A DNA stretch of 32,000 nucleotides. Source: Formosa sp. Hel1_33_131. Lineage in GTDB: Bacteria; Bacteroidota; Bacteroidia; Flavobacteriales; Flavobacteriaceae. The notes below the pieces were generated by a model. The model was not told the origin of the DNA, made no database searches, and worked only from the letters and a program-made list of their open reading frames with translations. This document shows positions 2 to 4,108 of the stretch, piece after piece. Location of the stretch: positions 300,001 through 332,000 of the forward strand of contig NZ_CP017260.1 in assembly GCF_001735745.1 (NCBI RefSeq). The letters are read 5' to 3'. Numbering within the stretch: the first letter of the stretch is position 1; every line of letters starts with the position of its first letter. A program made the position numbers and the translations under genes.

Positions 2-1468
2 CCTTTTGGTTTTAATGGAGATTCTAAGGTCCACACCCCTATTATTGATAACTTAGCAAGTAACGGAATTGTTTTTAACAATGCATTTGTTTCTTCCTCT
101 ATATGCAGCCCAAGTAGGTATAGTATTTTAACAGGAAAATACGCAGGAAGGTCCGAAGGCACTAATTTCTTAAACGGGTATCCCGTAGGGCAATTAAGTC
201 GCGTTGCAAACAATATAGAACTCGAAGAAAATACAGATAATTTACCAAAACTATTACAAGCTGCAGGCTACAATACTGCTTTTATAGGAAAATCTCACAT
301 TGTGGATCATGAATTTTTAAACACCTATACACAAGGCAATTTTGGTTTCATGGCATACGATCAAACCGATGATCCCTATGTAGAAGCAATTTCTGATGCC
401 ATGAAATTTAATCATGATAAATGGGCAGACAGAATTAAAGATTTTGGATTTGATGTTGTGGATGCATTTTATCCCGCAAACTTAAGAGAATTAAAAAATG
501 ATGACTTAAACGTTCACAATGTTGAGTATAAGAATAAAGCGGTTCTCGATTATATTGAGAATGCTAGTGACGACCCTTTCTTTATTTACTACAGTGAAAC
601 GGTGCCTCATGGTCCAGCCCCTTTTTGGTCAAATAATAATAATTTTTATGCCGGTTTAGATTCAGACGTTAATATCACAGCTGAAGGTGTTTTAATACAA
701 GACTATTCGTACTTACCAACACGAGCGCAAATAAAAGATGAAATTTCTAATTTACCTGGAAAGGATATAAAACAAGCTTGGTTGCGTTGGTTTGACCATG
801 CTGTTGGTGCTGTTGTCAGTAAATTAGAGGAAACAGGAAAGTTAGATAACACCATCATCGTTATTACTTCCGATCATGGAGATTTTAACAAAGGGAAATC
901 TACAAATTACGATGCAGGCACAAAAGTACCTTTAATGATCTATTGGCCAGATGGAATTTCGACGCCTTCTACTTACGACGAATTGGTTCAGAATATAGAC
1001 TTCGCCCCTACTTTTTTAGATATTGCGGGTGTAGATATTTCTACTTCAGAGATGGATGGTGTAAGTTTAAAAGAAGTTATTACTAATAATGCTACAGAAG
1101 CTGTTCACGATCATTTATTTTTTGAATTAGGGTTTTCTAGAGCGATTAGAACCAAAGACTGGAAATATGTAACGGTGCGTTATGATGATGCTACAAATCA
1201 AAGAATAGCCGACGGAGACACTTTCAATGGGCCAAACGGAACACAGGTACCTCTACCCTTCTACATCCCAAATGTATCTTTGGGAAGTTTAAGTGCAGCT
1301 GCGTACCCACTGTATCATGTAAAAGACCAATTATTTGATTTAAGCAATGACCCTTATGAAGAAGTCAATCTTTTTGACACTCAATTTGAAATAGCTACAG
1401 AACTAAGGAATACATTAAGAACCGAATTACTTACTTTTATTGACAGACCCTATCAAGAATTTACAGAT
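2..1468 (+). other. Sulfatase module of the fusion protein (paralog of 20401..22041)
   Basis: C-S-P-S-R at 104..118; GKSH, SETVPHGPAP, WLRWFDHAVGAVV, ITSDHGD, GTKVPLMIYWP, LFDLSNDPYEEVNL. Colinear with the 20401 protein down to RPYQEFTD versus RPYAEFVN-stop. Confidence 0.9.

Positions 1469-4108: not shown

Follow-up and report, generated by a model that had tools for sequence, protein, structure and literature searches.

Closest described systems

The counterpart of the gene analyzed here is PbSulf1-GH195 (Pb1059) from Polaribacter sp. Hel1_33_78, which was characterised biochemically by Krull et al. (Microbiome 2026, PMC13063451; bioRxiv 10.1101/2024.07.03.601839). Secreted by T9SS, it combines in tandem an endo 6-O-sulfatase (S1_51) with an endo-alpha-1,3-mannanase of the new GH99-like family GH195, and it opens the attack on the C6-sulfated alpha-1,3-mannan of diatoms (PMC13063451). 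Removal of the 6-O-sulfate by the sulfatase precedes cleavage by GH195 and is needed for it, and cleavage yields oligosaccharides of DP 3-7 that are each short of one sulfate (PMC13063451). In the minimal pathway of four enzymes that was published, the periplasmic steps belong to the GH92 exo-6S-mannosidase PbGH92_1, acting as exo 6-sulfo-alpha-1,3-mannosidase in step 3, and to the S1_11 exo-sulfatase PbSulf2, a mannose-6-sulfate sulfatase, in step 4; the rest of the Polaribacter PUL enzymes "appeared inactive" on the mannan (PMC13063451).

The pair OpSulf1 (9FVT) and OpGH195 from Ochrovirga pacifica S85 belongs to the same two families and acts on the same substrate as PbSulf1-GH195. It differs from the fused protein in being encoded by separate genes and in having no T9SS domain. 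In this pair, too, the sulfatase must act before GH195 can cut. According to its authors 9FVT is the first S1_51 structure, PbSulf1 and OpSulf1 are reported to be 53% identical, and endo 6-O-sulfatase activity on alpha-1,3-mannan has been demonstrated for these two enzymes only (PMC13063451). With the GH99 enzymes (BtGH99, BxGH99, human MANEA) the GH195 module has in common the (beta/alpha)8 fold and the Glu-x-x-Glu pair. The linkages are different, alpha-1,2 for GH99 and alpha-1,3 in sulfated mannan for GH195, and the latter is treated by its authors as a separate family (PMC13063451).

One more covalent combination should be mentioned. The molecule name of PDB entry 6HR5 is "Alpha-L-rhamnosidase/sulfatase (GH78)". 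This is reportedly P36, the GH78/S1_25 rhamnosidase-sulfatase from the ulvan PUL of Formosa agariphila, ascribed to Reisky et al. 2019. Like the fused protein, P36 couples a glycoside hydrolase with an S1 sulfatase and comes from a marine flavobacterial PUL directed at a sulfated glycan of algae; unlike it, P36 combines GH78 with S1_25, has ulvan as substrate, and its hydrolase is not endo-acting on the backbone. An earlier note on the present DNA, made from its letters, had stated that it knew of no characterised sulfatase/endo-hydrolase that is covalently coupled, a statement made outdated by the publication of PbSulf1-GH195 (bioRxiv 2024, Microbiome 2026).

Anatomy, intact motifs and conservation of the fused gene

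The window (a stretch of 32,000 nucleotides from Formosa sp. Hel1_33_131) begins within a single plus-strand frame, 2..4108, which is open at the window edge and ends with a stop codon at 4106..4108. The earlier note had read this frame as one polypeptide composed of a sulfatase colinear with the stand-alone sulfatase at 20401..22041, a 13-codon linker, a hydrolase aligning with the stand-alone lipoprotein at 11555..12856, a beta-helix and a T9SS C-terminal domain (CTD), and each of these elements was borne out. Its proposal to recover the upstream DNA was also productive. In metagenome contigs 100% identical to the window over the 4108 nt, the start codon is a TTG located 141 nt 5' of window base 1. 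The recovered N-terminus reads MKKYFVYLFLVFNTSLLFG followed by QQPNIVFIMTDDQS, where MKKYFVYLFLVFNTSLLFG, judged by eye in the contigs identical to the window, is a Sec signal peptide and is followed by QQ. The full product has 1415 aa and matches RefSeq WP_257784855.1 (Formosa sp. Hel1_33_131) exactly; in all, seven proteins of the window have exact matches in this strain. The window carries the 3' 97% of the gene, and 5' of it lie the first 47 codons, which include those for the signal peptide and for the DDQ metal site.

The first module (2..1468, aa 48-536 of 1415) is an S1 sulfatase by Pfam (E = 1.3e-43; PF00884, 149.9 bits against a cut-off of 25). Its residues 1-489 as counted in the window are colinear with the stand-alone sulfatase over the entire mature length of the latter (53% identity, 552 bits, E = 0), and the alignment stops at the last residue of that paralog (RPYQEFTD versus RPYAEFVN-stop). 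The C/S-x-P/A-x-R motif and the metal and catalytic residues (DD, K-x-H, H, D-H, K) are all present. In full-length numbering, and assigned by motif inspection with no structural superposition, these are the metal-site motif MTDDQS (aa 28-33), the Cys-type formylglycine motif CSPSR (104..118, aa 82-86, computed positions), GKSH (287..304, aa 143-146), HGP (602..622, aa 250-252), TSDHG (866..883, aa 336-340) and a Lys within aa 345-358 (893..934). The closest solved structure is 9FVT, with E = 1.6e-168 and 564.6 bits, the next one having E = 3.8e-34. This score is near the 552 bits of the 53%-identical paralog in the window, which fits the 53% identity reported for PbSulf1 and OpSulf1. A neighbor-joining (NJ) tree of sulfatases places the fused clade as sister to that of OpSulf1, with 100% bootstrap. 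By these sequence comparisons the module is assigned to subfamily S1_51.

A 13-residue linker, TSVDLTVTTESTS (1469..1507), leads in continuous frame to the second module (1508..2722), which by homology and by the fold of its AF2 model (mean pLDDT 89.9) is probably of the GH195 type, a GH99-like (beta/alpha)8 endo-alpha-1,3-mannanase. Residues 502-902 of the fused product align with residues 40-429 of the lipoprotein encoded at 11555..12856 (56% identity, E = 2e-155). The top Foldseek matches are GH99 structures, with E of about 1e-16, TM 0.65-0.78 and 13-15% identity. Pfam GH99 (PF16317) reaches 30.1 bits on the fused protein, below its cut-off of 33, and matches just the C-terminal third of the model. 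The module belongs to the GH99 clan by fold and is not a GH99 member. Indirect evidence for a relation to the founding GH195 sequences is strong. The architecture and PUL position agree with those of PbSulf1-GH195, and peptides encoded by the Pb1059 primers occur in homologs of 75-82% identity. The module is also 56% identical to the GH195-type gene of the O. pacifica PUL, the only such gene within the PUL part examined. The reported identity between OpGH195 and the Polaribacter GH195 domain is 36%, at odds with this measured 56%; the candidate for OpGH195 is the neighbor of the OpGH99A gene.

The third module (2732..3871) contains Pmp-like GGAI/FxxN repeats and is modelled by AF2 as a right-handed beta-helix (mean pLDDT 78.9) with weak and generic structural matches. 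In the fused protein it is reported by no Pfam model, and neither Chlam_PMP nor Beta_helix was found at E <= 0.01. The product of the gene directly upstream of the window is a full-length paralog of this module together with the CTD (38% identity, E = 1e-75), and it passes Chlam_PMP (PF02415, 31.3 bits against a cut-off of 20.6). Most likely the beta-helix serves as a spacer or binds the substrate or the cell surface. The polypeptide ends with a T9SS type A sorting domain (3872..4108, stop codon included), above the cut-offs of both PF18962, Por_Secre_tail (30.5 bits versus 27), and TIGR04183 (32.4 bits versus 23), with a Foldseek match to the T9SS-bound CTD 8GLK_D (TM 0.77). The fused protein is predicted to be a T9SS type A cargo.

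Could such a fusion be an artefact of assembly or sequencing, with a stop or frameshift masked near 1469..1510 and two or three adjacent genes in reality? The earlier note had named a hidden break of this kind as refuting its reading, and none was found. At least four independent metagenome assemblies, as well as the isolate genome, carry the 4108 nt at 100% identity, the frame runs unbroken through the conserved linker in 10 other species of Flavobacteriaceae at 61-94% identity, and about 85 clusters at 90% identity span the whole 1415 aa. In one related MAG a frameshift does break the gene, but it lies between GH195 and the beta-helix, not between the sulfatase and GH195. An artefact is already refuted by these data. 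Loss of catalytic residues, likewise raised by the earlier note, is not seen in either module. This bears on the idea that the GH99-like module is a non-catalytic binding domain that places the sulfatase, as would be the case for OpGH99A, which has no catalytic machinery. The sub-threshold Pfam GH99 score would agree with it, and so would a decayed GH99-like paralog in the same PUL, the OpGH99A homolog at 10477..11553 (PDB 5NGW, E = 1.1e-63), where the Glu pair is replaced (NDWNRG for NEWHEG). However, in the fused module both Glu of the FDEMDEGT motif (2528..2551) align with the GH99 catalytic pair (NEWHEGT; phmmer alignment to 6ZDC), 31 homologs show no substitution at D344, E345, D347 or E348 of the module, and the Polaribacter counterpart yields an endo-type oligosaccharide ladder (PMC13063451). 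The dN/dS ratio is about 0.1 in the sulfatase and GH195 modules and 0.13-0.15 in the beta-helix module, and judged by these values all modules of the gene are under purifying selection. A non-catalytic GH99-like module is very improbable.

Synteny and orthology of the fused gene and the stand-alone pair

The genes described next lie on the same plus strand. A carboxypeptidase-regulatory-like protein (DUF4480; 4127..5293; exact match AOR27345.1) separates the fused gene from an adjacent SusC-like (5479..8715; Pfam Plug/CarbopepD_reg) and SusD-like (8718..10466; Pfam SusD-like_2) pair, which is accompanied by co-oriented CAZymes and sulfatases, the arrangement that defines a Bacteroidota PUL. 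After the OpGH99A homolog comes the stand-alone GH195-type lipoprotein (11555..12856), a paralog of the fused module with DEIDEGT intact, and farther downstream the stand-alone S1_51 sulfatase (20401..22041). Their signal types, as given in the earlier note, were confirmed: the hydrolase has the lipobox LLNSC, and the sulfatase fits an SPI-type signal because its N-terminus has no Cys. The counterpart of PbGH92_1 (26304..28544) is 94% identical to SDT98145.1 from Polaribacter sp. Hel1_33_78, and its place in the gene order agrees with the Polaribacter Table S3 (PMC13063451). The next gene (28578..30164) encodes an S1_11-type sulfatase, the counterpart of PbSulf2, with 5G2V as the closest PDB entry (E = 2.9e-147) and 7LHA/7LJ2 also matching; 5G2V and 7LJ2 are the two characterised members of S1_11 (PMC13063451). 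Both published periplasmic enzymes thus have counterparts in the window.

How similar are this locus, described as PUL126 of Formosa sp. Hel1_33_131 (PMC6298971), and the Polaribacter PUL? The fused proteins share the order S1_51, GH195 and T9SS domain, and in both genomes the fusion gene heads a syntenic PUL and is preceded by a T9SS "hypothetical" gene. The Polaribacter order was matched through Pb1058 (T9SS hypothetical), Pb1059 (Sulf1-GH195), two GH99-like and two GH92 genes, S1_15, S1_51, CE, S1_53, GH92_1 and S1_11. Two of the PUL proteins were compared directly with homologues of Polaribacter Hel1_33 strains, and the identity is 92-94% for the step-3 GH92 and for the stand-alone S1_51. 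The published Pb1059 primers encode QTQKP and NEKFS. In fused homologs that share 75-82% identity with the Formosa protein, these peptides are located at the mature N-terminus and where the beta-helix meets the CTD. Identity of the latter to Pb1059 can therefore be put at about 75-82%, as an estimate through primer-encoded peptides and not by direct alignment; the primers themselves have no exact match in the window or in 83 loci, and no protein labelled Polaribacter sp. Hel1_33_78 turned up among the clusters or the full-length matches. The hosts differ in genus (Formosa / UBA3537 versus Polaribacter), and the window PUL is without two GH3 genes and one sulfatase listed for Polaribacter, which leaves room for differences in the side chains of the substrate.

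The two stand-alone genes have a history of their own. Structure 9FVT scores 708.6 bits on the stand-alone sulfatase against 564.6 bits on the fused module. This score and the NJ tree indicate that the crystallised OpSulf1 is orthologous to the stand-alone sulfatase and not to the fused module. The stand-alone sulfatase is 92% identical to its Polaribacter homolog, and the product of 11555..12856 falls into a Bacteroidota stand-alone clade that is sister to the fused clade. The suggestion that the fused modules are recent copies of their paralogs in the PUL was rejected, because fused and stand-alone forms make separate clades, each with several genera.

WP_257784855.1 is very probably the first enzyme of the sulfated alpha-mannan PUL of this strain and the counterpart of PbSulf1-GH195. 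It is quite unlikely that the Formosa enzyme acts on another sulfated glycan than the Polaribacter enzyme, for example glucuronomannan or a glycoprotein. PUL126 was annotated earlier for such substrates (PMC6298971), identity to Pb1059 is estimated at just 75-82%, and gene content differs slightly; yet the remaining three published activities are present, the GH92 and S1_51 identities of 92-94% to Polaribacter homologues given above also speak against it, and the fused genes form a monophyletic clade that evolves under purifying selection. More room is left for the idea, still a doubtful one, that the fused enzyme on the one hand and the stand-alone S1_51 and GH195 on the other are parallel entry systems for mannan variants or locations and do not perform the successive rounds suggested in the earlier note. 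The fused enzyme would then act on free polymer, and the SPI sulfatase with the lipoprotein GH195 on chains bound to the surface or imported, or else on mannan with other decorations, such as xylose or glucuronate branches or 4-O-sulfate. The stand-alone sulfatase is orthologous to OpSulf1, which is active on mannan; the syntenic stretch of O. pacifica is devoid of a fused gene and carries a GH195-type gene in the position of 11555; catalytic motifs are kept in both stand-alone copies; and the duplication is old with both lineages retained. Against this, the remaining Polaribacter enzymes, including the S1_51 (Pb1070) and the GH99-like Pb1064, "appeared inactive" on the mannan preparation (PMC13063451).

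Only tentatively, the whole locus may be seen as two complete sulfated-mannan entry systems made from anciently duplicated parts, with a functional stand-alone pair and the beta-helix as a third unit. One would be the secreted three-module machine of clade A S1_51, GH195 and beta-helix; the other would be a cell-bound split pair of clade B S1_51 (SPI) and GH195 lipoprotein, orthologous to the active pair of O. pacifica and working on imported oligosaccharides or on a mannan variant. The beta-helix, which also exists as the separate T9SS protein upstream and would be confined to such PULs, might bind the substrate or the cell surface or be catalytic.

Proposed mechanism, origin of the fusion and its meaning

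By analogy, the chemistry of PbSulf1-GH195 would carry over to the Formosa protein. The latter would cross the inner membrane via Sec by means of its SPI signal peptide, Cys82 of CSPSR would become formylglycine, and the type A sorting domain would then take the protein across the outer membrane via T9SS. Outside the cell the S1_51 module would strip 6-O-sulfate inside the chain of the diatom C6-sulfated alpha-1,3-mannan. The GH195 module, tethered by the 13-residue linker, would require the desulfated mannose for productive binding and would cut the backbone endo-wise with its GH99-like Glu pair. The oligosaccharides would be imported by the adjacent SusC/D pair, and the GH92 (26304..28544) and S1_11 sulfatase (28578..30164) would convert them to mannose and sulfate. 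The earlier note had proposed that both modules work one after the other on a single sulfated mannan, extracellularly and before SusC/D import, and for the Polaribacter counterpart Krull et al. reported just this (PMC13063451). Its remark that formylglycine must be acquired before export is true of every S1 sulfatase that is exported, whether by T9SS or otherwise.

The fused clade is monophyletic in both the sulfatase and the GH195 trees, and the sulfatase-GH195-beta-helix fusion has a single origin, probably in a lineage of sulfatases for which secretion by T9SS was already established. Fusions of sulfatases with GH99-clan domains have at least three further independent origins, in both module orders, and these repeated events generalise the link between the two families. 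Co-occurrence, whose absence the earlier note had named as refuting, was also found: the sulfatase and hydrolase families share one locus in three phyla, with independent fusions elsewhere. The stricter rule that GH195 always travels with S1_51 was rejected, as most GH195-like genes of Planctomycetota and Verrucomicrobiota have no S1_51 within 10 kb. GH195-like domains also occur in fusions with CBM, PKD, esterase or Pmp modules.

What does this fusion mean? Since its close Polaribacter counterpart is already characterised, the finding is a confirmation of published work and not a discovery, and because the desulfate-then-cut mechanism is already published, the finding itself adds no new biology. 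It does mean that reading raw sequence can recover the correct mechanism, to desulfate and then cut, extracellularly. The increments are the Formosa counterpart with its true start codon, the presence of paralogs of all three modules in the same locus, the single origin of the fusion, the recognition that OpSulf1 represents the stand-alone lineage, and the at least three other fusion origins. The PUL of PbSulf1-GH195, to which all this relates, is abundant and expressed in surface-ocean bacterioplankton (PMC13063451).

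Architecture of the fused gene and its catalytic modules

The reading frame that enters the window at base 2 is uninterrupted until the stop codon at 4106..4108. Residues 1-489, the sulfatase module, are colinear with the whole mature product of the stand-alone sulfatase gene at 20401..22041 (53% identity, 552 bits), and the alignment stops at the last residue of the latter. A linker of 13 residues, TSVDLTVTTESTS (nt 1469..1507, + strand), lies between the sulfatase and GH195 modules. Fusion residues 502-902 match residues 40-429 of the lipoprotein encoded at 11555..12856 (56% identity, E = 2e-155), and no sequence similarity was found between the fusion and the product of 10477..11553, the second GH99-like gene in this locus. 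Residues 907-1368 match, at 38% identity and full length (E = 1e-75), a beta-helix protein of 477 aa with its own T9SS CTD, encoded directly upstream of window base 1 (L002:4187-5620). With this match, each of the three fusion parts has a stand-alone paralog in the locus. In all related loci reaching far enough upstream, such a tandem beta-helix paralog lies ahead of the fused gene.

Among the domain models, Pfam Sulfatase matched the fusion with E = 1.3e-43, and both models of the T9SS sorting domain exceeded their cut-offs: Por_Secre_tail with 30.5 bits (cut-off 27) and type A TIGR04183 of NCBIfam with 32.4 bits (cut-off 23). Pfam GH99 reached 30.1 bits, under its cut-off of 33. The anatomy described in the earlier note is thus borne out by the open frame, the paralog alignments, the linker and the CTD models. 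The upstream nucleotides, whose recovery that note had proposed, were found on metagenome contigs that include the neighbouring gene and are 100% identical to the window across all 4108 nt. The start codon, TTG, lies 141 nt before window base 1, and the N-terminus, MKKYFVYLFLVFNTSLLFG followed by QQPNIVFIMTDDQS, comprises an SPI-type signal and then the DDQ metal site. Seven proteins of the window are exact matches to Formosa sp. Hel1_33_131, in which the full-length fusion, of 1415 aa, is WP_257784855.1; an earlier GenBank annotation, AOR27344.1 (1388 aa), begins at an internal Met and hence has no signal peptide.

The sulfatase module carries CSPSR, DDQ, GKSH, HGP, TSDHG and the Lys region. 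Its nearest solved relative is OpSulf1 of Ochrovirga pacifica (PDB 9FVT, E = 1.6e-168; runner-up 3.8e-34). In the GH195 module FDEMDEGT is aligned to NEWHEGT of GH99 (phmmer alignment to human MANEA), and D344, E345, D347 and E348 are invariant in 31 homologs. The AF2 model of this module (mean pLDDT 89.9) matched best to GH99 structures, with E about 1e-16, TM 0.65-0.78 and 13-15% identity, and next to 5NGW and GH71. The module is GH99-like by its fold and catalytic pair and lies outside GH99 by sequence. OpGH99A (PDB 5NGW, E = 1.1e-63) has a homolog in the product of 10477..11553, in which NDWNRG stands in place of the GH99 Glu pair (NEWHEG).

The beta-helix module was modelled as a right-handed beta-helix of generic type with the CTD after it, and structure comparison gave no informative fold match to it. 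The family is small and essentially limited to the fusion and upstream-protein contexts. Between beta-helix and CTD lies an acidic loop, DSPIDFGDDGNDAGAWNS (3785..3838), near-invariant in fused and stand-alone paralogs and modelled with low confidence, which might serve in metal binding or processing. Between the fused gene and SusC lies a gene (4127..5293), kept in related loci, whose carboxypeptidase-regulatory-like product of 388 aa includes little beyond a domain resembling the SusC N-terminal domain (TIGR04056 positions 3-83).

Relation to the characterised Polaribacter enzyme

The earlier note knew of no characterised coupled sulfatase/endo-hydrolase, which is outdated by the publication of PbSulf1-GH195 (Pb1059) from Polaribacter sp. 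Hel1_33_78, an enzyme of several modules that include a T9SS domain (PMC13063451). Its S1_51 domain removes 6-O-sulfate endo-wise from C6-sulfated alpha-1,3-mannan, and the backbone is then cut by the domain of GH195, a new family and distant relative of GH99, to oligosaccharides of DP 3-7 with one sulfate fewer each (PMC13063451). The separately encoded O. pacifica enzymes need sulfatase action first (PMC13063451). In Polaribacter, PbGH92_1, of family GH92, and the S1_11 sulfatase PbSulf2 complete the pathway (PMC13063451). The proposal of extracellular desulfation and then cutting ahead of import was correct, as demonstrated on this Polaribacter counterpart (PMC13063451).

The gene order of the window matches the Polaribacter locus-tag list: Pb1058 (T9SS hypothetical), Pb1059 (fusion), two GH99-like, two GH92, S1_15, S1_51 (SPI), CE, S1_53, GH92_1 and S1_11. 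Over 12868..30164, set against the genes in Table S3 of PMC13063451, the Formosa PUL has no equivalents of Pb1076/77, both GH3, or of the sulfatase Pb1069, and its S1_11 sulfatase directly follows the GH92_1 counterpart. For the sulfatase at 28578..30164 the best structural relatives are the S1_11 structures 5G2V and 7LHA/7LJ2. This locus has been catalogued as PUL126 of Formosa sp. Hel1_33_131 (PMC6298971). The GH92 at 26304..28544 is 94% identical to a protein of Polaribacter sp. Hel1_33_78 and the stand-alone S1_51 (20401..22041) 92% identical to its Polaribacter homolog, which fits the high PUL identity across genera remarked previously (PMC9723552). At an inferred ~75-82%, the fused gene seems to have diverged further. 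Cloning primers for Pb1059 encode QTQKP and NEKFS-stop (PMC13063451); in fused homologs 75-82% identical to the window's protein, QTQKP lies at the mature N-terminus and NEKFS at the beta-helix/CTD boundary. From these positions we infer that Pb1059 belongs to the same orthologous group and that the recombinant protein would have retained the beta-helix without the CTD.

Conservation and origin of the fusion

Could the fusion be an artefact? This is ruled out by the same unbroken ORF in at least four independent assemblies plus the isolate genome, and by a search across GTDB with one genome for each species: about 10 more, every one a marine Flavobacteriaceae MAG, had the single-ORF architecture at 61-94% identity, the linker being kept in all of them. 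About 85 clusters (90% identity), nearly all from marine metagenomes, span the full 1415 aa. In comparisons with the two nearest orthologs, for which dS is not saturated, the modules had these dN/dS values: sulfatase 0.09-0.11, GH195 0.10, beta-helix 0.14-0.15 and CTD 0.28-0.43.

Several variants were seen among the homologs. In one MAG (L014:11471-15728) a frameshift at the GH195/beta-helix boundary splits the gene into two overlapping ORFs of 971 aa and 455 aa, by sequencing error or as a pseudogene. In the fused metagenome homolog P0498 (1417 aa), identity to the window's protein is 77% for the sulfatase module and 95% for GH195, suggesting a mosaic from recombination within the fused gene between lineages. 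The fused gene at L013:11273-15592 has a beta-helix of the upstream-paralog type, 39% identical to the window's and with the N-terminus YYVSATGAGAMDG, whereas the sister lineage L021 retains the usual type; this suggests that the module was swapped between tandem paralogs.

The fusion had a single origin: NJ trees place the fused sulfatase modules (97%) and fused GH195 modules (100%) in one monophyletic group each, sister to a stand-alone Bacteroidota clade holding the window's own paralog. The secreted sulfatase lineage is probably older than the fusion, because the nearest unfused relative, an S1_51 from a syntenic PUL of a freshwater Flavobacterium MAG, already has its own T9SS CTD. That PUL (L017, 9968-11842 and 16743-19364) lacks the fusion; its S1_51 is sister to the fused clade, and it also encodes a protein of 874 aa that combines a T9SS CTD with a divergent GH195-like domain (32% identity).

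A survey of co-occurrence and fusion, as the earlier note had suggested, revealed proximity in three phyla. An unfused GH195-type gene occurs within 10 kb of an S1_51-type gene in freshwater Flavobacterium, one Planctomycetota MAG and, among Verrucomicrobiota, Coraliomargaritaceae, Lentimonas and Puniceicoccaceae; for most GH195-like genes of Planctomycetota and Verrucomicrobiota no S1_51 was found nearby. Only one of 1.84 billion cluster representatives matched the sulfatase-plus-GH195 query end to end. Sulfatase and GH99-clan domains have also been fused independently: in P0343 and P0350 GH195 is joined to a different sulfatase, nearest to the window's S1_15, and in P0581 a GH99-like domain (intact NEWWEG) precedes a C-terminal S1_51-type sulfatase, in reverse order. 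PDB 6HR5, with the molecule name GH78 rhamnosidase/sulfatase, is another characterised GH-sulfatase fusion (GH78/S1_25).

The retained stand-alone pair

OpSulf1 scored 708.6 bits against the product of 20401..22041 versus 564.6 bits against the fused module and clusters with the stand-alone clade (91% bootstrap, NJ tree); it is orthologous to the stand-alone copy. The syntenic O. pacifica stretch contains SusC, SusD, OpGH99A, a GH195-type gene at the position of window 11555 and two GH92, and the fused gene is absent there. The single-module copies may act in a second round, as the earlier note suggested. The remaining Polaribacter PUL enzymes "appeared inactive" (PMC13063451); in O. pacifica, activity has been demonstrated for the stand-alone lineage of the sulfatase. 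The GH195-type gene in the readable part of the O. pacifica PUL is 56% identical to the window's module, versus the published 36% between OpGH195 and the Pb GH195 domain (PMC13063451), and the two figures disagree.

The fusion is real and was correctly read, but is not new. Interest now centres on what its conserved beta-helix and the stand-alone pair kept in the locus do.
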